From assembly GCA_023261545.1 (NCBI GenBank), contig JAHFOS010000002.1, positions 62,590 through 126,589 on the forward strand: a stretch of 64,000 nt of DNA, written 5' to 3'. How positions within the stretch are numbered: position 1 is the stretch's first letter; each line of letters begins with the position of its first letter. The notes beneath the pieces are model-generated. The model made no database searches. It had not been told where the DNA came from and was given only the letters and a program-made list of their open reading frames with translations. The translations under genes were made by a program, and so were the position numbers. Shown piece after piece: positions 4,882 to 63,382 of this stretch. Source of the stretch: a bacterium. GTDB taxonomy: Bacteria; Planctomycetota; JADGBV01.

Positions 4882-5637
4882 ATGCCCATCACGTTGACGG
4901 ACAAGGTGGCATGGATCACCGGCACCAGCCGCGGCATCGGCGCGGTACTGGCGCGCCGCTTCGCCGAGCGTGGAGCCCGGGTCGTGGCCACATGTCTGGG
5001 GGGGGCCAAGGACTCCGGGGGTCTGGACGAATTTTTCAGGGAAAATAGCCCGCGTTCAACCGTGCTTCACCAGGACGTGCGCCGGCCCGAGGATGGCGAG
5101 GCGGTGGCCGCCTGGATTCGCGATCACGCGGATCGGCTCGACGTGCTGGTCAACAACGCCGGCATTGACCCGCGCAAACCAGCGGATGAGATGAGCGTGG
5201 AGCACTGGCGCGAAGTGTTGAGCGTCAACCTGGACGGCTCGTTCTATTCCTGCCGGGCGGCCCTGCCGCTCATGAAGGAGCGGGGTTACGGCAAAATCAT
5301 CCAGGTGGGCTCCATCATGGCCTTTTTCGGCGGGGCCAAGGTCGCCCACTATGTCTCAAGTAAGATGGGCCTCATCGGGCTCACGCGCGGGCTGGCGCGC
5401 GACCTTGGCCGCTTCGGCATTCGCGTGAACTGCGTGGCGCCGGGCGCCATCTTCATGCCGCTGCCGCCGGAGGAACGACGTGGGGAAATTGAAAAGACCA
5501 TGAACGAGCGGCAGTGCCTGCCGGGCCTCATGGTGGCGGAGGATATCGAGCCCACCTACGCCTTCCTCGCCTCGGAGGACAGCGACGCCATCACCGGCCA
5601 GTGCATCACCGTGGACCGCGGATGGACGCACTATTGA
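4882..5637 (+). CDS. Short-chain dehydrogenase/reductase (SDR) family oxidoreductase
   Basis: N-terminal TGTSRGIGAVLARRFAERGARVV Rossmann glycine motif, NNAGI, catalytic YVSSK (YxxxK), PGAI. Confidence 0.85.
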   Translation: MPITLTDKVAWITGTSRGIGAVLARRFAERGARVVATCLGGAKDSGGLDEFFRENSPRSTVLHQDVRRPEDGEAVAAWIRDHADRLDVLVNNAGIDPRKPADEMSVEHWREVLSVNLDGSFYSCRAALPLMKERGYGKIIQVGSIMAFFGGAKVAHYVSSKMGLIGLTRGLARDLGRFGIRVNCVAPGAIFMPLPPEERRGEIEKTMNERQCLPGLMVAEDIEPTYAFLASEDSDAITGQCITVDRGWTHY

Positions 5638-5679
5638 TGGCCCGCCGCGAACCGCCAACTCCTGCCTGAAGGAAAGCCC

Positions 5680-6891
5680 ATGAAGATCACGCACATCGAA
5701 ACCCTGCGCGTCATGAAGTGGCCCCAGAACATCTGGGTGCAGATCCACACCGACACCGGCCTCGTCGGGCTCGGCGAAACCTTCTACAATGCTCCCGGCG
5801 TGCAGGGGTCGGTGCTGGAACACTTCGGCCCCATGCTCATCGGGCGCAACCCCTGCGAGGTGGAGCGGCATTGGGAAGCGATGTTCCGCGTGAGCGAGCA
5901 CGCGGGTTACGGCGGGGCCGAACTCCGGGCCATCTCGGCCCTGGACATGGCGCTCTGGGACCTCAAGGGCCAGGCGGCGGGTCTGCCGGTTTACGAAATG
6001 CTGGGCGGCGCGACGCGACGCCGCGTGCGCTTGTATGCCACCAGCCTCAGCCACCAGCAGCCCGCGGAGATCGCCAAGGGTCTCATGGATCAGGGCATCT
6101 TCGCCATCAAGGGCGATCCCTTCATCTCCTTCTGTCTTGAGAGCGATGGGCAGTTCATTTCCGCGGCTGATATCGAGCGCGGCCTCAGGCCCGTGCGCGC
6201 CATCCGCGACGCCGTGGGCGATGCCATGGAAATCGCCATTGACACGCACGGCAAATGGAACCTGCCGGTGGCCATGAAGCTGGCGCAGGCCATGGAGCCC
6301 TACAACATCCTATGGTTCGAAGATCCCATGCGCATGGTCTGCCCCGAAACGCTGAAACGGCTGCAGGAGGGGACGCGCATCCCGCTGTGCATTTCCGAGC
6401 GGCTGATGACGCGCTGGCAGTTCCGCCAGTACATCGAGAGCGGCGCCGCGCGCATCGTCATGCCGGACCTGATATGGACGGGAGGCATCTCCGAGACCCA
6501 CAAGATTGCCATCCTGGCCTCGGCCCACGAGGTGCCGGTGGCGCCCCACGACTGCACCGGGCCGGTCAACATGTTCGCCTGCGCCCAGATCTGCATGAGC
6601 GCGGCCAACGTCATGATCCAGGAGTATCTCCCGGTTTACCACCAGGGCTGGTACGCGGAGGTGGTGGACCCCAACCTGGACGTGCGCGACGGCTGGCTCT
6701 ACGCGCCGGAAAGGCCGGGCATCGGCACGCGCCTCAAGCCCGAGGTGCGCGGCCGTTCCGATACGGTCATCGCCGTTTGCAAGGAGGCACGAGAGAGTTA
6801 CATTGACCACTGGGTCGCGCCACCCGGCCTGCGCTCGCCGCGCATGGAGGCGGAAACACAAAAAATGCGCGAGGAAAGAGGACCGCGATGA
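5680..6891 (+). CDS. Enolase-superfamily dehydratase (mandelate racemase/muconate lactonizing enzyme family; galactonate/sugar-acid dehydratase-like)
   Basis: MKITHIETLRV...WVQIHTDTGLVGLGET N-terminal capping domain. TIM-barrel metal ligands AIDTHG...WFEDP...E. Start overlaps next gene by 4 nt (operon). Confidence 0.85.
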   Translation: MKITHIETLRVMKWPQNIWVQIHTDTGLVGLGETFYNAPGVQGSVLEHFGPMLIGRNPCEVERHWEAMFRVSEHAGYGGAELRAISALDMALWDLKGQAAGLPVYEMLGGATRRRVRLYATSLSHQQPAEIAKGLMDQGIFAIKGDPFISFCLESDGQFISAADIERGLRPVRAIRDAVGDAMEIAIDTHGKWNLPVAMKLAQAMEPYNILWFEDPMRMVCPETLKRLQEGTRIPLCISERLMTRWQFRQYIESGAARIVMPDLIWTGGISETHKIAILASAHEVPVAPHDCTGPVNMFACAQICMSAANVMIQEYLPVYHQGWYAEVVDPNLDVRDGWLYAPERPGIGTRLKPEVRGRSDTVIAVCKEARESYIDHWVAPPGLRSPRMEAETQKMREERGPR

Positions 6892-8150
6892 ATCCCATGG
6901 ATCTGCATATCACCAGAATAGAAACCGTCATTCCCACCGCCATCATGCCGGGCCTGGTGCTGGTGCGCGTGCACACCGATGCCGGCATCGTCGGCTGCGG
7001 GGAGAGCTACTACACCCCGCACGCGGTGGCGGCCATGATCCACGACTGGATGGCGCGGCGCCTCTTCGACCGCGCGGTGCCGTTCTCGGTGGAGGGCACC
7101 TGGCGCTTCCTCTACGAGCGCGCGGCCAACTTCGGCACCCAGGGCTGCGAACTGCGGGCGCTGTCGGCCATTGACCTGGCGTTATGGGACATCATGGGCC
7201 AGCTCACCGGCCAACCGATATGGGCGCTGCTGGGCGGGCCGGTGCGCGACCGCGTCCCGGTGTACAACAGCAGCGGCGGCCCGAGCTATGGCGCGCGCCG
7301 CGACGGCCACACCGATCCCCAGGGCTGGCCCGGTTACGGCGACGTCGGGGAAAAAGGACCGCTCAATGATTACTGGTCCATCGTGAACCAGCCGGTGGAA
7401 TACGCCGGCGAGCTCATCGCCTCGGGCACCAAGGCCCTCAAGACCTGGATCTTCGACTTCGCCGCCCACAAGCCGAATGGTGGCCTGCATATCAGCCACG
7501 CGGATATCGAGACGGGCCTGAAGCCGCTGCGCGCCATCCGCGAACGCTGGGGAAAATCCATCGAAATCATCCTCGACGGCCACGGCTTCTTCCAGTTGCC
7601 CGCCGCCCTGCGCATCGCCCGCGCCCTGCGCGAAATAGATCCCCTGTGGCTCGAAGACGTCATACGCCCGGACTGCATTGACACTATCAGCGACTTCCGC
7701 AACAAGGCCGGGGTTCCGGTGGCTGTGAGCGAGATGATGGTCGGCCACGAGGACTACCGCCTGGTGCTGGAGAAGCGCGCCGCCGACTACATCATGATCG
7801 ACCCCACCTGGGTGGGCGGCATCTCCCAGACGCGGCGCGTCGCCCAGATGGCCCAGGCCTACAACCTCCCCGTCACCATGCACGATTGCACGGGGCCGCT
7901 CACGCTGCTGGCCGGGGTGCAAATCGCCGCCGCGACCCCCAACGTGGCCTGGCAGGAGACGGTGCGCGCCCACCTGCAGTTCGTCTATCCGCGGCTCATT
8001 GACGAACGCCTGGCCATCGTGGAGGGACACATCGCCCTCCCGCGCCGGCCCGGGCTCGGAGCCGGCCTGCTCCCGGAGCTGTTCAGTCCCAAGCAGCCGG
8101 ACTACCGCGAAAGCCGGGCGCCGGCTCCCGGAGCCGCAAAAGCCGGCTAA
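6888..8150 (+). CDS. Second enolase-superfamily (MR/MLE) dehydratase, tandem paralog
   Basis: ITRIETVIP...LVLVRVHTDAGIVGCGES...ILDGHG...LWLEDV; ATGA overlap with upstream gene. Confidence 0.85.
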   Translation: MNPMDLHITRIETVIPTAIMPGLVLVRVHTDAGIVGCGESYYTPHAVAAMIHDWMARRLFDRAVPFSVEGTWRFLYERAANFGTQGCELRALSAIDLALWDIMGQLTGQPIWALLGGPVRDRVPVYNSSGGPSYGARRDGHTDPQGWPGYGDVGEKGPLNDYWSIVNQPVEYAGELIASGTKALKTWIFDFAAHKPNGGLHISHADIETGLKPLRAIRERWGKSIEIILDGHGFFQLPAALRIARALREIDPLWLEDVIRPDCIDTISDFRNKAGVPVAVSEMMVGHEDYRLVLEKRAADYIMIDPTWVGGISQTRRVAQMAQAYNLPVTMHDCTGPLTLLAGVQIAAATPNVAWQETVRAHLQFVYPRLIDERLAIVEGHIALPRRPGLGAGLLPELFSPKQPDYRESRAPAPGAAKAG

Positions 8151-16723: not shown

Positions 16724-16781
16724 TGGAGACAGACTTGAAGGGGAGTTGCGTGGGGTTTACAGGCGCGGTCAGGTTATTTAA

Positions 16782-17036
16782 GGCTCATCCGACTAATGCG
16801 TACTTTTCTGGAGTTTTTAACACGGGTGCACGGTCGAGCAAGGCTAGAACCAAAGCGAGCTGCCGGGGGATTTTCCACAGATTGCACAGATTAACACTGA
16901 TAATAATCAATCCGGGCCATCCTTTCTAATCGGTGCAAATCTGTGTAATCTGTGGATGCTCCCGAGTTGAGAACGCAGAGAGCCGAGAACAAATGAGGGG
17001 GAACCCTGCCAGAGGTACGCATTAGTCGGAGGCGCC
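16782..17036. mobile_element. MITE-like non-autonomous element, copy 1 (~255 bp). It has ~22-bp terminal inverted repeats and an 8-bp target-site duplication TTATTTAA
   Basis: Left end GGCTCATCCGACTAATGCGTAC, right end GTACGCATTAGTCGGAGGCGCC. Flanking direct repeats TTATTTAA at 16774-16781 and 17037-17044. Internal inverted pair CCACAGATTGCACAGATTAACAC / GTGCAAATCTGTGTAATCTGTGG. A second copy lies at 62931-63181. Confidence 0.6.
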
Positions 17037-17087
17037 TTATTTAAAGCGCCAACTGTGCAGGCAAGGTAAGACATGGCATGCACATGG

Positions 17088-21700: not shown

Positions 21701-21825
21701 TTTCATAATAGTTCCGCTCTGTCGAAGATTTTCCAGCCGTTCGCCCTTCATCCCCAGCTTTGGGGGATGAGTTTTTCGAATGGCCACGAAGCGGGCCACT
21801 AGGGGTGGATAGCGGTGGTGCCGAG

Positions 21826-21866
21826 ATCCGTTCATGCTTCGACAAGCTCAGCACGAACGGATCTGA
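21826..21866. terminator. Perfect hairpin (9-bp stem, 21-nt loop) between convergent moeA and moaD. The sequence is related to the REP-like repeat family
   Basis: GATCCGTTCATGCTTCGACAAGCTCAGCACGAACGGATC; the loop sequence CTTCGACAAGCTCAG is shared with the elements at 33826, 34892 and 47215. Confidence 0.4.
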
Positions 21867-21917
21867 TTGCCATTCACTTCAAACGAAAACCCATTCCTCG
21901 GGCTGAATTGTGTAGGC

Positions 21918-29059: not shown

Positions 29060-29212
29060 GGCCGATCCTGGAAAGTAAAGGGGTACGGCTTCTTAGCCGG
29101 CCTCTCCAAAGCTCAAGCGCAAGAGCGCAATCCGGTCTGCGTAGGGGCAACCGGTGGTTGCCCCCTTGTGGTTGCCCCATGTGTTGTTGTCCCCGCCGTG
29201 GATTTCCCGGAT

Positions 29213-29283
29213 GTAGGGCACCCGGTGGGTGCCCCCCCGGTGGGTGCCCCCCCGGTGGGTGCCCCCCCGGTGGGTGCCCCCCC
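29213..29283. repeat. Tandem 15-bp direct repeat (GGTGGGTGCCCCCCC, about 4.5 copies) in the recA upstream region; G7 tracts on the minus strand
   Basis: cacccggtgggtgcccccccggtgggtgcccccccggtgggtgcccccccggtgggtgccccccc. It is translated as GGHPP repeats in a spurious ORF. Confidence 0.7.
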
Positions 29284-29296
29284 ACAAGGAGCGCCC

Positions 29297-33825: not shown

Positions 33826-33960
33826 CTGTAAGCGTTCAGCCCGTAATTGCCTTCGCATCGCGGCATCAACAACCAGGCCCGTTCGTGCTGAGCCTGTCGA
33901 AGCATGAATGGGCCGAAACCTCCCGCCGTTCACCCTTCGACAAGCTCAGGGCGAACGGCG
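33826..33960. repeat. REP-like double-hairpin repeat element, copy A (~135 bp), immediately after the sucC stop
   Basis: GTAAGCGTTCAGCCC...AGGCCCGTTCGTGCTGAGCCTGTCGAAGCATGAATGGGCC...CCGCCGTTCACCCTTCGACAAGCTCAGGGCGAACGGCG. Each half is a stem-loop, and the two loops are complementary to each other. Confidence 0.55.
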
Positions 33961-34003
33961 AGCGACTTTTCGATAGGGCGGACTACTTGCTGTCGCATTT
34001 TGG

Positions 34004-34891: not shown

Positions 34892-35018
34892 GTAAGCGTT
34901 CAACCCACGGAACGTGTCTTCGTCTTACCACCGGCATTCAGGTCCGTTCTTGCTGGGCTTGTCGAAGCATGAACGGGCCGTGACCGCCCTTGCCGTCCAC
35001 CCTTCGACAAGCTCAGGG
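34892..35018. repeat. REP-like double-hairpin repeat element, copy B, immediately after the sucD stop
   Basis: GTAAGCGTTCAACCCACGG...GGTCCGTTCTTGCTGGGCTTGTCGAAGCATGAACGGGCC...CCGTCCACCCTTCGACAAGCTCAGGGCGAACGGCGG. Confidence 0.55.
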
Positions 35019-35055
35019 CGAACGGCGGGGTACACGCGATGCTTGGGTAAAAAGA

Positions 35056-38600: not shown

Positions 38601-40673
38601 TCACTTTTTGCCGCGATCCCTGACGGGGTTACTGCTGGCAACGGGCCGGACGAACTGAAGAAATGAGGCTTGGGGCCGGCCGTCGGCGTCCCAGAAACCG
38701 GCGCAAACGGCCTTGTTGAACCCCTCTCCTTCGGTCTCGGGCGCGTAAACCATGAAGTCGGGAATGAAATCGTATTTGTGGTTCTCCGCAAGGCGCGTCC
38801 CCCAAGGCAGGCCGCTGTTGACCGCTGCCACGCGCGCGCTTTGCCAGGGATTGCGCGTCACCACCCATAAGCCCGTGCCGGCGCGCGGCAGCTTTTCCCC
38901 GGCCAGTTCGATGGCTTCCCCGCCCACCTTGATGGCCAACGCCGACAATACCTTGCGCACCAAGGGACTCGTTTCGGGTTCGCCGAAGAGCACGAGGTTG
39001 AAGGCGTCCAGCACTGCTACGCTGGCCTGCCGTTCCAGCACGGCCCGGGGCCAGCCCCTGGCGTAGCGGTACCACTCGTAACGGCGCTCGTTGAAAGCGG
39101 CGCTGAATTCGCTTCCCGATCCGCCGTCGGCCTGCACAAAGAGAAAAGGATCCAGGAAGACCTCGCGCAGCGGGCCCGGAGCCGGGAGCGGCAAGGGTGG
39201 CGATTCCCGCGAATTGTTTTCACTCAACTGGAGGTTGCCCGCCACCGTGCAGGGCCAGCTCTTGCACTCCGCGGGCAGGAATTCGCGGTTCAAAACGAGC
39301 GAGCGCAGGCCCGTGGCGGAGATCAGGATCTTTCCATCCTTGGCTTCACCGGTAATTTTCTTGCGTTCCCCCAGCGGGCCGAAATCTTTTACGCTGACCC
39401 AATGCGCGCGGCTGTAACGCGGGTGATAGGTCGCGTAGTTGAAGGCGGCGGGAATAGCGCGCCGCAGGCCGGAAAGCCAGCGCCGCACATCCTCCAGCTC
39501 CAGCACCGCGGAGTGGATCCAGTGGCTTCCGTTTTCGATGCTGACGAAGCGCGCGCCCGGATGCGCGGGGGCGATGCGGCGGCGCGCGGCCTCGAACTCG
39601 CCGTAGGGAATCATGGTGTCCCTACTCCCATGAACGGCATAGACGGGAACCGCGGCAAGGTTCTCACCCAATTCGGCGGCGAAGTCGCCTTCGATGAGGT
39701 TGCGCTTCCAGGGCGGCAGCGCGTCGGGGTCCACGCCCTTCCAGGCATACCAGTCGGCGCGTCCCGAAATGACCAGGAGCCCCGCGAACAAATGGGGATA
39801 ATGCGCGGCGATATTCCAGGCGCCCATGGCCCCCATGGAGAGCCCGGAGATCACCACGCGATCCGCGTCAACGCCGTAGCGCCGTTTCATTTCCTCGATG
39901 ACGTTCAGGACGTCTTGCTCGCCGATGCCCTGGTAGTCGGTGTTGCCGCGCCCGAAAGGCGCGGCAAAGACGAAACCCAGATCGTCAGCCAGCTTGTAGC
40001 AGCCCTGGGGAATCATCTCCGTCCAGTTGTCCACTTCGAGGTAGGGCGAATAACCATGCAGGAAGACCAGCAGCGGACGGCCCTTCGTTTCTTCGTCGCC
40101 CGCGGGCAGGTGGACGAGAAAGGGCTGGAAGGAACCGTCGTTCTCGGAGCAATAACCCTCCTCATGAGCCCCCGGCTCCCGCTTTGGCGCCTGCTCCGCG
40201 TGGCTGATGCGCGCCAGTTCCGCGCGCGCCAGGGCGATCTCGTCCGCGACTCCCGCGGTTTCGCTTTCATCCCGGGAGCCGCGCTGCAACAGCACGCGCG
40301 CCCGACGCAGGTGCCAGCCCAAGTTCTGCCACGCCACGTCGGCGCTAGAATTCCGGGCTGGTCGCTCCGGAAACAGCTTGCTGAGCTCGTCAATCTCCCC
40401 GGAAAGCCGGTGGATGAGCGGCGCCGTCTCATCCGCCGCCGCCGGCGCCGCAACGGCGAGGGCGAACAGCAGTGCGGCGACGACCGCGGGTTTTAAATTG
40501 GGCCGACTCTGCGGCCGCCTGCTGGGTCCCCAGCGGCGGCCACTCCCGTTTCCCCTTTCCCAGGTTGGTGAGCGTCGCCAGACATCTCTGCTCTCCCTCT
40601 CCCGTCGGGAGAGGGTTGGAGTGAGGGTCTTGGAGATGATGAAGTTAGGAGAATCCTGAAATTTCGTCAACAA
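38601..40673 (-). CDS. Secreted alpha/beta-hydrolase (esterase/peptidase S9-like). The start is uncertain; the N-terminal approximately 60 codons translate a palindromic repeat element
   Basis: Nucleophile elbow GLSMGAMGA (GxSxG), and HGxxD-like VYAVHGSRD. Hydrophobic signal-like KPAVVAALLFALAVAAPAAA begins after the repeat-derived segment. Confidence 0.7.
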   Translation of the reverse strand: MLTKFQDSPNFIISKTLTPTLSRRERESRDVWRRSPTWERGNGSGRRWGPSRRPQSRPNLKPAVVAALLFALAVAAPAAADETAPLIHRLSGEIDELSKLFPERPARNSSADVAWQNLGWHLRRARVLLQRGSRDESETAGVADEIALARAELARISHAEQAPKREPGAHEEGYCSENDGSFQPFLVHLPAGDEETKGRPLLVFLHGYSPYLEVDNWTEMIPQGCYKLADDLGFVFAAPFGRGNTDYQGIGEQDVLNVIEEMKRRYGVDADRVVISGLSMGAMGAWNIAAHYPHLFAGLLVISGRADWYAWKGVDPDALPPWKRNLIEGDFAAELGENLAAVPVYAVHGSRDTMIPYGEFEAARRRIAPAHPGARFVSIENGSHWIHSAVLELEDVRRWLSGLRRAIPAAFNYATYHPRYSRAHWVSVKDFGPLGERKKITGEAKDGKILISATGLRSLVLNREFLPAECKSWPCTVAGNLQLSENNSRESPPLPLPAPGPLREVFLDPFLFVQADGGSGSEFSAAFNERRYEWYRYARGWPRAVLERQASVAVLDAFNLVLFGEPETSPLVRKVLSALAIKVGGEAIELAGEKLPRAGTGLWVVTRNPWQSARVAAVNSGLPWGTRLAENHKYDFIPDFMVYAPETEGEGFNKAVCAGFWDADGRPQASFLQFVRPVASSNPVRDRGKK
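40545..40625. repeat. Palindromic repeat element (~80 bp, core CTCTCCCGTCGGGAGAGGG). Related copies occur at 60835-60905 and 61310-61440
   Basis: CCAGGTTGGTGAGCGTCGCCAGACATCTCTGCTCTCCCTCTCCCGTCGGGAGAGGGTTGGAGTGAGGGTCTTGGAGATG is near-identical to CCAGGTTGGAGAGCGTCGCTAGACACCTCTGTTCCCCCTCTGCCTTCGGGAGCGGGACGGGGTGAGGGTCTTGGAGAG at 61350. Confidence 0.5.
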
Positions 40674-47214: not shown

Positions 47215-47350
47215 GTAAGCGTTCAACCCATGAATCGCATCCGCGCATTGTGGCGCCAACCCAGGCCCGTTCGTGCTGAGCCTGTCGAAGCATGAACGGG
47301 CCGCGACCCCACCGCCGTCCACCCTTCGACAGGCTCAGGGCGAACGGCGG
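47215..47350. repeat. REP-like double-hairpin repeat element, copy C
   Basis: GTAAGCGTTCAACCCATGAATCGC...AGGCCCGTTCGTGCTGAGCCTGTCGAAGCATGAACGGGCCGCG...CCGCCGTCCACCCTTCGACAGGCTCAGGGCGAACGGCGG. Confidence 0.55.
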
Positions 47351-47538
47351 GTAGTTCTTTATCATGGCTGAACGCTTACATATTTTTCAAGCGACTATGA
47401 TTCAACTGGTTACGGCGAAAAATAATTCGCTTCAAAACACAACTCTTTTGCCACCCAACCGAGGCTTTCTTGAGCAGCAGGCGCCGGTCCAGGGATGTGG
47501 CGGAACAAAAAGCTGTCCCGCTTATGCTTTTTACACTT

Positions 47539-59918: not shown

Positions 59919-60443
59919 TCAGAACTCTATGGTCAGGGGCGTTTCTGGCGGCGGCTGCGCCGCTGCCGCCGCGGGAGGCGCGGGCTTTTTCTGCAATTGT
60001 CTGTAGTAGAGCATTCCGGAGACACCGACCACGATCAGGGTGCCGAAAAGCCAGGCCTTCTTGTTGATGTGCGTGGTCGGGAACTCCTGCGGCAACGGCA
60101 GCGGACGCTCGGGAGGAACCGCGTCCCCAGGCGGAGAAAGCCGGAAGGAGGAAAAACCCTCCAGCGGCTCCAAACCCTTTTTGGGCGGGCGCTTCTCCAG
60201 CGCCTTGTCGAGTGCCGCGAGCCGATTTTCCACTTCGCTGAGGAACTCCCCCTGGACTTTGGGGTCGCGGAACAGCCTCTCATAGTAGGACCTGGCGGAG
60301 TCCATGTACCCCAGATCCTCAAGCTGCCGGGCCAGATCGAAGAGCTGTTTTGCATCCATCTCCGCCGCTGACAGCGGCGCGCGGGACATCAGCAACGGTC
60401 CCGCCACGACCAGCAGAAGAAAGAGCCTCCAGGCACCTACCAT
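59919..60443 (-). CDS. Hypothetical protein with a signal peptide, a helical (TPR-like) segment and a C-terminal transmembrane anchor
   Basis: Signal MVGAWRLFLLLVVAGPLLMS; helical segment YYERLFRDPKVQGEF; transmembrane LFGTLIVVGVSGMLYY. Confidence 0.45.
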   Translation of the reverse strand: MVGAWRLFLLLVVAGPLLMSRAPLSAAEMDAKQLFDLARQLEDLGYMDSARSYYERLFRDPKVQGEFLSEVENRLAALDKALEKRPPKKGLEPLEGFSSFRLSPPGDAVPPERPLPLPQEFPTTHINKKAWLFGTLIVVGVSGMLYYRQLQKKPAPPAAAAAQPPPETPLTIEF

Positions 60444-60452
60444 TCTTCGATT

Positions 60453-62843
60453 TTATCCCAGCCGGGAAAGCTGCGAGAGAACCAGGATCGTCAACAGCGT
60501 GAAAAGGGCCAGCGCCCCCCAGGCGAGGATGCGTCCGGCGCGGCGCAGCCGTGATGATTGACGCACGAGGTACAGGATTTCGCTTTCGGTGGTCTCACGT
60601 GCGGTGGCGGCGACGCTGGGGATGTGCCCCTCAGCTTCCGCAGGCTTGGCCTTTCTCCCTTCACTTGTCCCATCACCCATCTTCCCCTCAAAAGAAAACG
60701 GACGGGGTGAAAAGACCGGCGCCGCGGCCATGGGCAATTCACGCGCGGCGACCGTTGCCTGGGTCGCCATCTCAGGGCCGACGGCAGCGCCGGACATCTC
60801 GGGTTCCCCCCTCCCGGGTAAGCGTTCGGCGCTAGAAATCGCTGTTCCCCCGCTCCCTTCGGGAGAGGGATGGGGTGAGGATCTTGGCGCAGGTTGGGGC
60901 AAAGTGGAAGCGCTGCTCTCCCGATCTTTCTCCTCGTCAGCCCCTCGCCTAGAGCCTGACTCAAAATTTTTCCCACCAGCGGCGCCCTCCGCAAAAAGGT
61001 GGTCGGGAAAAAGGCTCCCCGTATCGCTAGCGCGAAATCCACGGAAGGGATCTCCGGCACGTGGAAAGAGGTCGTCTGGCGTGGCCGCGAAGTCTGTATC
61101 CACCTCAGCGCCGAGCTCCGCGGCCTTTTCTGTCTCACCCGCTTCCGAGGCGAAGGCGCGCTGAGAACCTTCGTCCTCCTCCCGCGGAGCCTCTTCGGCA
61201 AACTCAGCTTCCTCGCCCGCCGGGGCCGCCGCGGGCGGCTCTTCGCCAGGAAAGAAAATATCGGAGGTGGAATAGGGGAGGCTCGTGGCCTGCGATGCCT
61301 CTGCTCCCCCTCTCCCAGGTTCCACAGCTTCGTCCGACGCCGCTGTTCTCCCTTTGCCAGGTTGGAGAGCGTCGCTAGACACCTCTGTTCCCCCTCTGCC
61401 TTCGGGAGCGGGACGGGGTGAGGGTCTTGGAGAGGGCTGGAGCGAGGATTCTGGAGAAGGCAGGGCCGAGGTCTCATGGAAACTCTCTGAGGTCTCGTGG
61501 TTCCCCTCGTTGTGCGGGACGACCTCCCCTGCCTCATGGCCCTCCCGCGAAGCCGGCGGCAGCTCCTCACCCAATGGCACCGCAGCGATCTCGACCCTCG
61601 GCGGAACAGGCAGCTCCGCTCCCGCCTCCGGCAACGCCGGCGCTTCGATGGCTGGCGGCAGCAGGCGCCGCGCGGCCTCTTCGTCAAGGAAGGCCGCGGT
61701 CTTCTTCGCCGCCTCCGCTTTTTCCAGGTCGTTCAGGCGCTTCAAAAGCAGCGTGGAATCCCAATAGATGCGCTCCGGCTCGGGCTCCGCCGTTGCCGCA
61801 GCTTCGCTCTCGACGGCGGGGCGTGCCTCGGCCAGGCGGCGCTCGCGCTCCGCTTTCCAGGCCTCGTCCTCGCAAATGAACGGGATGTCAGTTCCCGTGC
61901 AGGCCGGCCTCGGCCAAGGCAGCAAACGCGGTTCCCCTGCTTGCGGCTCGCCGATCTTCTTGAGTACTTGCTCCAGTTGATCGAGTTGCATGGAGCCGTC
62001 GCTCAACGCCGCGAGCCCCGAACGGCAGACTTGGCGCAGGCGATGTTCAGCTCCGGGGTCGGAGGCCGCGGCGCAGATGAAACCTTCCCGCGGACGCGCC
62101 TCGATGATGAGCAAGAGGTTCGGATGGCCACACCCCGTATAGAGATCGAGGAACCCGAGCCGCAAGGCCGCAATCTCCCGTTCGTTGAGCCCCGACCACC
62201 GCCACACCAGCCAATCGCCGTGCTGCTCCGCGGTTTTCTGGCCGCCCGTTGGCGCCGCGGGCGGTCGAAAGTCCCCGAGGATGATATGCAGTAGCCTCAA
62301 CAACGGAGCATCCCGGAGCGCAAAGGGGTAAAGGTTCAGGAAGGCCGTGAGCGCGCCCGCCAGACTTGGCGCCGGCTTGCCGCTGTGGGAGGGGAGCTCG
62401 CGGCCCAGGTTCCAGGCGAGTTCCCCGAGTCCCCCAAGCAAGGGCGTCTTGTGGAACCATTCGGCGAAGCGCTTGGTGCCTTCGGAACTGGTCCAGTCCA
62501 GGATCTGGATGACGTCGCAGCCGAGCATGAAATCCTCCAGTCCGGGGTAGTGTTCCTTCGCCCGGCCCACGCCCCATAGCCACACCCAGTCCGGCCGCGC
62601 GACGATATCGAAAGTCCCCTGCGTGGGCGTCAGCCAGCAGCCCCGTCCCCATTCCTCGGGCCAGGACTCGTTGCCCTGGGTCGGCGCCAGCACCTGCGCC
62701 TGCTGGCCGCTGCGAGCCAGGGTCTCGGCGAGGTAACAAGCGCTGCCCGCGGCCACGGCATCGAAGCGCGCGGGCGGAACGATGAGGTGGCGCGGCGCCT
62801 TCAGCCTTTCGACGAGATCGATGAAATGCAGCCGCCCCGCCAT
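60453..62843 (-). CDS. Hypothetical membrane-anchored protein (796 aa): N-terminal globular domain, long acidic/Pro-rich disordered linker with internal repeats derived from palindromic DNA repeat elements, and a C-terminal TM helix
   Basis: Long ORF. Linker repeats LQPSPRPSPRPAPEGRGGTEVSS and LPQPAPRSSPHPSPEGSGGTAISS are encoded by copies of the CTCCC(T/G)TCGGGAG repeat. C-terminal ILAWGALALFTLLTILVLSQL. Confidence 0.55.
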   Translation of the reverse strand: MAGRLHFIDLVERLKAPRHLIVPPARFDAVAAGSACYLAETLARSGQQAQVLAPTQGNESWPEEWGRGCWLTPTQGTFDIVARPDWVWLWGVGRAKEHYPGLEDFMLGCDVIQILDWTSSEGTKRFAEWFHKTPLLGGLGELAWNLGRELPSHSGKPAPSLAGALTAFLNLYPFALRDAPLLRLLHIILGDFRPPAAPTGGQKTAEQHGDWLVWRWSGLNEREIAALRLGFLDLYTGCGHPNLLLIIEARPREGFICAAASDPGAEHRLRQVCRSGLAALSDGSMQLDQLEQVLKKIGEPQAGEPRLLPWPRPACTGTDIPFICEDEAWKAERERRLAEARPAVESEAAATAEPEPERIYWDSTLLLKRLNDLEKAEAAKKTAAFLDEEAARRLLPPAIEAPALPEAGAELPVPPRVEIAAVPLGEELPPASREGHEAGEVVPHNEGNHETSESFHETSALPSPESSLQPSPRPSPRPAPEGRGGTEVSSDALQPGKGRTAASDEAVEPGRGGAEASQATSLPYSTSDIFFPGEEPPAAAPAGEEAEFAEEAPREEDEGSQRAFASEAGETEKAAELGAEVDTDFAATPDDLFPRAGDPFRGFRASDTGSLFPDHLFAEGAAGGKNFESGSRRGADEEKDRESSASTLPQPAPRSSPHPSPEGSGGTAISSAERLPGRGEPEMSGAAVGPEMATQATVAARELPMAAAPVFSPRPFSFEGKMGDGTSEGRKAKPAEAEGHIPSVAATARETTESEILYLVRQSSRLRRAGRILAWGALALFTLLTILVLSQLSRLG

Positions 62844-62930
62844 GGATCTAAAAGCCGGCCATTGTGGGACATGCCGGGCCGGTGCAAACCCGGCTCGTCA
62901 GCGTTTATTTGACGACTTCCGCCAAAAAAG

Positions 62931-63181
62931 GCTCACCCGAATAATGCGTACCTTTCTAGAATTTTCACGCCGGTGCCTGGTCGAGCAAGACCGGAACCAA
63001 ATTTAGCTGCCAGGGGGATTTTCCACAGATTGCACAGATTAACACAGATAATAATCACGCAGGACCGTCTTTTTTAATCAGTGCAAATCCGTGTAATCTG
63101 TGGATGCTCCCGAGTTTGGAGCACTGAGGAGCAAGAAAAATAGGGAAGACACTGCCGAAGTACGCATTATTCGGATGAGCC
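62931..63181. mobile_element. MITE-like element, copy 2 (~250 bp), with an 8-bp target-site duplication CAAAAAAG, inserted upstream of / overlapping the 5' end of the ECF sigma factor ORF
   Basis: Left end GCTCACCCGAATAATGCGTAC, right end GTACGCATTATTCGGATGAGCC. Flanking direct repeats CAAAAAAG at 62923-62930 and 63183-63190. The internal sequence is near-identical to copy 1. Confidence 0.6.
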
Positions 63182-63382
63182 TCAAAAAAGCCTCGCGCGC
63201 TCGGAACGCCATGGCCTGGACGGAGACTCCTGGTAAAATGCCTGAAGATGAAGGCGCCATGACCCCGGTCGTAGAAGAAGAAATCGCGGCTCCCTCTTTA
63301 CCCCCCATTTTGGAGGGGTTATCCCCTGTTTTAGGGGAGGTGGGGGACGAACTCCTAGCCGGGGCCGAACTCTGCGCCGCCA

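Follow-up and report, generated by a model that had tools for sequence, protein, structure and literature searches.

In-frame copies of a BoxC/TMECO-type palindromic repeat in a bacterium of the PVC group, with DUF559 nuclease genes as a candidate mobilising partner

A 64-kb stretch of DNA from a bacterium of the Planctomycetes-Verrucomicrobia-Chlamydiae (PVC) group (contig JAHFOS010000002.1; GC content 62%), referred to here as the window, carries three full copies of a palindromic repeat. One lies between an RNA methyltransferase gene and the signal-peptide region of an alpha/beta-hydrolase, and the other two lie within a gene for a 796-aa protein that ends in a predicted tail anchor. The window repeats are real but largely ordinary, being new degenerate members of a known repeat family with a lineage-specific add-on, and the questions that attach to them are how they come to be read in frame within genes and what may have moved them.

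The repeat copies and the genes around them

A profile built from the three copies recovered them with nhmmer at 40541-40650, 60794-60904 and 61338-61448 (E ~1e-30 to 1e-32), with the next best matches in the window at E > 0.05; all three share one orientation, with the G-rich strand on the plus strand (Table 1). Over the 90 best-aligned columns copies 1 and 3 are 83% identical, copies 1 and 2 74%, and copies 2 and 3 73%. The first-pass annotation had described an element of about 80 bp at 40545-40625 that was about 85% identical to 61350-61430, with related copies at 60835-60905 and 61310-61350. The pair is recovered here as copies 1 and 3, in agreement with the earlier estimate of identity and with a real extent that is slightly wider; the first of the related copies lies inside full copy 2, and the other is an extra 5' module adjoining copy 3. 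A search with the palindromic core pattern gave five matches in the window, falling on the three copy sites with two of them matched on both strands, where 0.07 matches were expected from shuffles and 0 of 100 shuffles reached five.

Table 1. Positions of the repeat copies, their host genes and the landmarks within them (coordinates of the window; core sequences are given on the plus strand)
Feature	Coordinates	Strand	Remarks
Repeat copy 1	40551-40640	+	42-nt 5' module 40551-40592, TM core, short G-rich tail; nhmmer E 1e-30 and alignment; lies between the SpoU-methylase stop and the hydrolase signal-peptide region, the opposite strand corresponding to aa 12-41 of the 690-aa ORF
TM core of copy 1	40595-40627	+	CCCTCTCCC GTC GGGAGAGGG TTG GAGTGAGGG; one mismatch to the TMECO pattern
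Repeat copy 2	60794-60905	+	core 60849-60881, CCCGCTCCC TTC GGGAGAGGG ATG GGGTGAGGA; two mismatches
Repeat copy 3	61337-61448	+	core 61392-61424, CCCTCTGCC TTC GGGAGCGGG ACG GGGTGAGGG; two mismatches
Extra tandem 42-nt 5' module adjoining copy 3	61298-61345	+	unit analysis, p<0.001 against shuffles
Gene for the 796-aa protein	60453-62843	-	N-terminal domain, disordered linker with both repeats, C-terminal tail anchor
PDHLF, linker motif D[YIH]L[HYF]	60993-61007	-	aa 613-617, in the ORF frame, between copies 3 and 2
Juxta-membrane motif LVRQSSRLRR and C-terminal transmembrane helix	60456-60599	-	in the ORF frame, downstream of both repeats
690-aa alpha/beta-hydrolase ORF (S9/esterase family)	38601-40673	-	TTG start 40673-40671, 15 nt after the upstream stop
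Signal-peptide-like hydrophobic segment K61-A80 (KPAVVAALLFALAVAAPAAA)	40434-40493	-	aligns with the N-terminal signal/lipoprotein peptides of homologues
Next in-frame canonical start, GTG, aa 113	40335-40337	-	would remove the signal peptide
SpoU-family RNA methyltransferase gene, called 185 aa	40689-41246	-	stop codon 40689-40691; upstream of the hydrolase

The repeat unit measures about 90-110 nt in all; it opens with a 42-nt 5' module, after which comes the core, of the form CCCTCTCCC-N3-GGGAGAGGG-N3-GGGTGAGGG. The hairpin of copy 1 (40595-40615) has a perfect 9-bp stem, and those of copies 2 and 3 contain one and two stem mismatches (pairing 9/9, 8/9 and 7/9, with first loops GTC, TTC and TTC). 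The plus strand of copy 1 folds better than its shuffles (z = -2.2), copies 2 and 3 fold no better than theirs, and a canonical G-quadruplex reading fits copy 3 only (four G3 tracts). Since copy 3 resembles copy 1, which lies far off, more closely than the adjacent copy 2, an origin of copies 2 and 3 by local duplication was rejected, and separate insertions are favoured. The extra module beside copy 3 aligns with a score of 32 against 9.0 +/- 3.1 for shuffled sequence, suggesting that the 42-nt (14-codon) module was duplicated locally after the insertion of copy 3.

The boundaries of the unit were examined in several ways. No terminal inverted repeats, such as mark a miniature inverted-repeat transposable element (MITE), are seen at the ends of the unit, and the flanks outside it are unrelated to one another. 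Tandem Repeats Finder reported nothing relevant over 60400-61800. The proposal that the 42-nt module is itself a TM motif that lost a hairpin arm was not adopted, the similarity being marginal (p 0.02-0.08), and an extension of copy 1 to 40503, up to the signal peptide, was unsupported (p 0.07-0.5).

Identity and distribution of the core

The BoxC or PIT repeat has reportedly been linked to the work of Bachellier in the 1990s and of Hoyne & Maher in 2000. BoxC and PIT elements are earlier names of the TMECO motifs, which follow the pattern CCCTCNCCC-N3-6-GGGNGAGGG-N3-GGGNGAGGG and number 23 in E. coli K-12 (Holder et al. 2015, PMC4666352). Compared block by block, the core of the window repeat can be identified as this published G/C-rich intrastrand-triplex repeat (hereafter BoxC/TM, a single motif being a TM) and is not new. 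The C-rich block CCCTCNCCC is exact in copy 1 (CCCTCTCCC) and has one mismatch each in copy 2 (CCCGCTCCC) and copy 3 (CCCTCTGCC), and the first G-rich block GGGNGAGGG, which is complementary to the C block, reads GGGAGAGGG in copies 1 and 2 and GGGAGCGGG in copy 3. The second G-rich block, after a 3-nt loop, has one mismatch each in copy 1 (TTG-GAGTGAGGG, with GAG where the pattern has GGG) and copy 2 (ATG-GGGTGAGGA) and is exact in copy 3 (ACG-GGGTGAGGG). Under the published search rule, which tolerates a single mismatched triplet per motif (PMC4666352), copy 1 passes with one mismatch, and copies 2 and 3, with two each, are degenerate members.

The window copies share with the BoxC/PIT/TMECO repeats the three-block core with its block and loop lengths, and a dispersed occurrence in either orientation without a known function. 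They differ in that they carry the 42-nt 5' module, which is absent from 160 other loci; in that their host belongs to the PVC group, whereas the systematic count covered 262 proteobacterial genomes (PMC4666352); and in that two of the three lie inside coding sequence, whereas all 23 copies in E. coli K-12 are intergenic, with no function proposed beyond an association with local genomic variability (PMC4666352). Intergenic location is a habit of the E. coli copies and no part of the definition of the family. In Enterobacter sp. 638, 100 palindromes of the form 'CCCTCTCCCXX(X)GGGAGAGGG' have been recorded (PMC2869309).

A scan for the core plus tail with GGGAGNGGGNNGGNGTGAGGNTCTTGG, run on one genome per species with 22 fixed bases (by our own estimate about 0.1 match is expected at uniform composition), returned at least 80 loci in many phyla, cultured isolates included. 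These loci come from Planctomycetota, Chloroflexota, Acidobacteriota, Myxococcota, Bacteroidota, Ignavibacteriae, Vampirovibrionales, and the Alpha-, Beta- and Gammaproteobacteria. The homology of these loci to the window copies begins at the core and does not take in the 5' module; judged by these alignments, the core is widespread and the module is specific to the lineage of the window.

The published TMECO pattern was also seen in at least 120 predicted viral contigs (IMG/VR, L081-L200), some of which may be host flanks of prophages. The 2015 study found no link of TMECO to phages or plasmids for E. coli (PMC4666352).

The perfect 9-bp GC hairpin of copy 1, with its favourable folding score, the conservation of the motif across phyla, and the formation of a stable triplex by a single-stranded TMECO oligonucleotide in vitro (PMC4666352) could all be taken to indicate that the copies are selected nucleic-acid elements, serving for example as terminators or attenuators, as hairpins that stabilise the mRNA, or as triplex or G-quadruplex switches. 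We consider this unlikely. On the mRNA strand the hairpin of copy 1 is followed by AGAGCAGAGAUG, with no T-run; a promoter and terminator scan showed nothing relevant, with no terminator-like site on either strand at 40551-40640; and Rfam 15 at the gathering score gave 0 matches in the whole window, with no tRNA or tmRNA either. The same oligonucleotide work detected no triplex in duplex DNA or in vivo, and earlier studies cited there found no promoter or terminator activity for TMECO repeats (PMC4666352). The degraded stems of copies 2 and 3 and their unremarkable folding argue in the same direction, as does the unrelatedness of the two host contexts.

Two copies read through in the 796-aa gene

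All three frames of the C-rich strand of the core are free of stop codons, so that an insertion in that orientation does not truncate the protein; the G-rich strand, read from the consensus, has TGA in one frame. It is the C-rich strand that forms the sense strand of both host genes.

The 796-aa protein consists of an N-terminal domain (aa 1 to ~380), for which no Pfam family was found, and a disordered linker (aa ~400-746) ahead of the C-terminal anchor. An indexed search with the whole sequence gave no homologues, as low-complexity words swamped the candidates, and an index-free search was used, which recovered ten homologues of 707-1356 aa matching aa 1 to ~380. All ten share one architecture, in which the N-terminal domain is followed by a hypervariable acidic low-complexity linker of 257-906 aa and by a juxta-membrane motif, VRQxxRLRKxD in the family, with a C-terminal transmembrane helix. 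A profile of the homologue tails ranked the C-terminus of the 796-aa protein best of 1130 six-frame fragments, at an E-value (0.16) that is weak taken alone. The linker motif D[YIH]L[HYF] occurs once in each of ten family members and twice in P0062. In this uncharacterised family (the 796-aa protein and the homologues P0059-P0067) the motif extends as D[YIH]L[HYF](x)4-5GWG-like sequence, and in the window the gene is transcribed divergently from an extracytoplasmic function (ECF) sigma factor gene.

Copy 3 corresponds on the minus strand to aa 466-503 of this protein (...SPRPSPRPAPEGRGGTEVSS..., or aa 466-516 with the extra module) and copy 2 to aa 647-684 (...SSPHPSPEGSGGTAISS...), both in the PSPxP...EGxGG frame; none of the three copies has a stop in this frame. 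The first of these peptides is the repeated sequence that the earlier reading had picked out in the gene. The 42-nt module, at 14 codons, shows up in the protein as a 14-aa repeat (PGxGG.E.S..A..) present about three times. A codon-usage log-odds score, trained on the long ORFs of the window, is positive in the ORF frame over aa 1-440, over 510-600 and over 720-796; only the two repeat zones score negative, and the GC content at third codon positions falls from 0.74-0.88 to about 0.52 in the repeat zones.

This composition invites the view that long ORFs in stop-poor GC-rich DNA are artefacts, and that the 796-aa gene ends before the repeats, which would then be intergenic copies of BoxC type. 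The exclusively intergenic position of the E. coli copies and the non-coding codon usage inside the repeat zones fit such a view, as does a 398-aa ORF that crosses the region in an alternative frame. Past each copy, however, codon usage of coding type resumes without a change of frame, the D[YIH]L[HYF] motif stands between the copies and the tail-anchor motif and transmembrane helix after them, all in frame, and the domain, linker and tail-anchor order recurs in all ten homologues, so an artefact of this kind is very improbable. Because each copy is bracketed by conserved, coding-like sequence in one frame, the 796-aa ORF is one real gene, and both copies are read through in its frame. Both its product and the 690-aa hydrolase were called by the gene callers of two public assemblies. 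These conserved landmarks, together with the codon statistics, bear out the claim of the first-pass annotation that a dispersed palindromic repeat is translated in frame, in two copies, within the disordered linker of a genuine gene.

That annotation went further in describing the repeats as exapted and as generating linker sequence. They do supply about 90 of about 370 linker residues; the linker itself, at 257-906 aa in the ten homologues, was already there. No sign of function was found to sustain the term exapted: the repeat zones are non-coding in their codon usage, and the peptides, rich in P, S, G and R, are unlike the surrounding acidic linker. As the linker is ancestral and tolerant of length change and the repeat zones are non-coding in composition, the analysis suggests that the genic copies are tolerated passenger DNA, neutral rather than exapted.

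The presence of two copies and a 14-aa tandem module in one gene might also be read as a sign that the repeat arose as a coding repeat of the 796-aa gene, a fragment of which was later copied upstream of the hydrolase. Such an origin is highly improbable, in that the core recurs across many phyla, where it is for the most part non-coding, the closest homologue of the 796-aa protein is without the repeat, the hydrolase ORF reads the repeat in another frame, and codon usage within the copies is of a non-coding type.

The copy ahead of the hydrolase

For copy 1 the matter is less straightforward, and it turns on where translation of the hydrolase begins. Thirteen aligned homologues (607-695 aa, up to 41% identity; metagenome-assembled genomes (MAGs) of Lentisphaerae, Kiritimatiellia and Victivallales) start 5-20 aa ahead of a hydrophobic signal or lipoprotein segment. 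In the window no in-frame ATG, GTG or TTG lies between TTG 40673 and the signal-peptide region (~40493-40434), and among canonical starts TTG 40673 alone, upstream of copy 1, retains the conserved signal peptide; the repeat is for that reason most simply a translated N-terminal extension. The distance of this codon from the upstream stop is normal operon spacing, and public gene calls use the 690-aa form. The hydrolase ORF reads copy 1 in the LTPTLSRRERE frame, in which copies 2 and 3 have TAG (module CTAGA); copy 1 has CCAGA at this point, giving TGG, and this difference may reflect selection to keep the hydrolase frame open.

On this evidence it is somewhat probable that translation begins at TTG 40673 and that the repeat supplies aa 12-41 of an N-terminal extension. 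A considerable, though smaller, probability attaches to copy 1 being non-coding, as spacer or 5' untranslated region, in which case the 690-aa call is over-extended and the repeat lies in the leader; the start codon of the hydrolase would then be a non-canonical one near 40500-40520 or, for a cytoplasmic form, GTG 40337. This is in keeping with the start positions of the homologues, with an ORF-frame codon score that is negative over 40643-40494 and turns positive from ~40550-40520, with the want of an evident Shine-Dalgarno-like sequence before TTG 40673, and with the fact that TM cores are stop-free, so that gene callers often run ORFs into them, as is seen at the termini of DUF559 proteins (below). 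It has to contend with the lack of any in-frame canonical codon between 40673 and the signal-peptide region, with the loss, if GTG 40337 were used, of a signal peptide conserved in all aligned homologues, with the TAG that copy 1 alone does without, and with the operon-like spacing of the TTG. What probability remains beside these two readings may belong to a decaying hydrolase gene. The earlier warning that the hydrolase start may be mis-called was therefore fair as a caution, but the sequence offers no better start and, if anything, leans towards a repeat inside the ORF.

DUF559 nuclease genes flanked by the motif in other genomes

In other genomes the motif is found beside a particular gene. 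The 1.41 Mb of motif-selected DNA contain four DUF559 genes (L053, L077, L114 and L135), and each of them has TMs 12-123 nt away; three are flanked on both sides, and L077, which lies at a contig end, on one side only, within 85 nt. Of the DUF559 proteins looked up on contigs independently of the motif, nine of nine carry a TM or TM-like hairpin at their ends or close to them (L222-L236); six of the nine had been picked because they lack translated TM peptide tails. The usual layout of such a cassette is TM(+), 10-50 nt, ORF, 0-20 nt, TM(-). One cassette sits between two permease genes of an ATP-binding cassette (ABC) operon, and two carry the GGGGGAGGG variant of all three blocks. In a profile search 13 of 120 DUF559 proteins ended in a translated TM peptide, against one marginal case in 56 controls. 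In E. coli K-12 the stop codon of ycjD, a DUF559 gene, lies inside a degenerate TM, and the intact TMECO no. 9 follows 168 nt downstream (NC_000913 1351204-1351760, L201).

The motif-selected loci were also checked for long ORFs running through the motif with Pfam domains on both sides, and three cases were confirmed. At L053, in a Vampirovibrionales MAG (JAJTHC010000092.1, ~5600-7100), a TM - DUF559 - TM unit lies inside the CN-hydrolase domain of a glutamine-dependent NAD synthetase (nadE), and an 877-codon frame stays open through the whole unit. In an Anaerolineales locus (L003) a TM doublet is read in frame inside a heparinase II/III-like protein, and in an alphaproteobacterial one (L005) a doublet forms a stop-free bridge between CoxS ([2Fe-2S]) and CoxG domains. 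Predicted in-frame TM copies are thus not unique to the window.

These associations make DUF559 a candidate mobilising partner of BoxC/TM repeats, and no paper linking the two was found in the literature. A fuller reading, which we put forward tentatively and hold to be possible rather than probable, is that BoxC/PIT/TMECO is the terminal repeat, or a solo or doublet MITE-like derivative, of a selfish DUF559 cassette of ~450-700 bp encoding a Vsr-like PD-(D/E)XK nuclease, and that the window copies are decayed non-autonomous relics, two of them fossilised in frame. A sequence requirement of the nuclease may then explain the near-identity of the motif across phyla. Three observations speak against this reading. 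More distant DUF559 genes on viral contigs are without a TM in 18 of 20 cases, the two loci with TMs both being on contigs found before, so that the link holds for a subgroup of DUF559 and not for the whole Pfam family; no co-variation was seen between DUF559 sequence and the GGGGGAGGG variant; and the window itself has no DUF559 gene.

Persistence of the window copies

Taken together, the evidence makes it likely that the window copies are a lineage-specific version of a widespread repeat, selfish or neutral, that persists where it is tolerated. On this account dispersed inserts of BoxC type, with a core that is open on the C-rich strand and so causes no truncation, would have entered the long, acidic, disordered and length-variable linker of the 796-aa protein in two separate events, there to be read through as P/S/G/R-rich peptides; a third would have settled in the 180-nt stretch between the SpoU methylase gene and the signal-peptide region of the hydrolase. 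From the cassettes in other genomes, the solo copies of the window are probably non-autonomous relatives of TM-flanked DUF559 genes.

Several points weigh against such a view. Only three copies occur across the window, and the 42-nt module and its junction with the core had 0 matches in two Joint Genome Institute (JGI) metagenome scans. A DUF559 profile found no match in the six-frame translation of the window, so that the proposed partner is not tied to the organism itself. With the best homologues at 36-41% identity, direct evidence of insertion from an empty site is wanting, and the tail-profile match is weak when taken alone. On the side of the hydrolase, a signal peptide preceded by a 60-aa extension is uncommon, and the TAG-to-TGG change in copy 1 could be due to chance (p ~0.35-0.4 by our own estimate, given 17% divergence). 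Copy 1 keeps a perfect stem and the genic copies have degraded ones, a contrast in which three copies are too few to separate age from selection.

Comparison with other repeat systems

The nearest likeness in behaviour is to the Rickettsia palindromic elements (RPE), reportedly described by Ogata et al. in 2000. These are palindromic repeats of ~100 nt that stand in frame in genes and are translated as a tolerated extra peptide, much as in the window; they form an unrelated sequence family, are not known outside Rickettsia, and occur in many folded proteins, whereas the genic copies of the window both lie in a disordered linker.

Repetitive extragenic palindromic (REP) sequences, with their REPIN forms and REP-associated tyrosine transposases (RAYT), resemble the present system in being short GC-rich hairpins, often in inverted pairs, with a partner gene flanked by repeats in the way that TMs surround DUF559. 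They differ in being species- or lineage-specific and in having a Y1 transposase as partner, whereas the TM core is near-identical across phyla and its candidate partner is a Vsr-like PD-(D/E)XK nuclease. The three window copies are solo and in the same orientation, and are not inverted pairs; neither a RAYT nor a DUF559 gene turned up beside them, although no search aimed at Y1 transposases was made.

A precedent for a nuclease of this fold in the service of selfish, site-specific DNA elements is I-Bth0305I, a homing endonuclease of Vsr fold, and the Vsr/DUF559 clade has been listed with 'Group I intron homing endonuclease' (PMC3424549). I-Bth0305I sits in a group I intron, unlike the DUF559 cassettes, which contain free-standing genes of ~330 bp between TM repeats and are known from sequence alone.

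For annotation, the stop-free nature of BoxC/TM repeats means that gene callers run ORFs through them, and that real genes can hold in-frame copies; peptides such as PSPxPSP..GRG, PHPNPLP.GEG and LTPxLS..ERE in predicted proteins are to be taken as repeat-derived and not as domains. For genome evolution, the 796-aa gene clearly illustrates that palindromic repeats can become fixed in frame in genes outside Rickettsia as well, and that such insertions survive in disordered linkers, which tolerate a change of length. The DUF559 association provides a testable candidate for the spread of a repeat that has gone unexplained since the 1990s.

Other repeats in the window

The window holds further repeats of other kinds. 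A second, unrelated palindromic family is present at 21803-21871, 33870-33962, 34933-35029 and 47261-47356, with paired arms such as CCGTTCGTGCTGAGCCTGTCGAAGCATGAACGG / CCGTCCACCCTTCGACAGGCTCAGGGCGAACGG that are 82-97% alike between sites. A segment of ~280 nt is duplicated at 16763-17044 and 62924-63200 (77-84% identity) and contains internal 40-nt inverted repeats (GGGATTTTCCACAGATTGCACAGATTAACAC...), the second of the two overlapping the start region of the ECF sigma-factor ORF (GTG 63100; called start 63238). A tandem array at 29191-29295 comprises about 5-6 copies of the 15-nt unit CCCGGTGGGTGCCCC. Finally, the segment 359-3251, probably a highly repetitive protein-coding region, holds four long tandem repeats (period 678-792 nt, identity 77-92%) together with shorter internal repeats.

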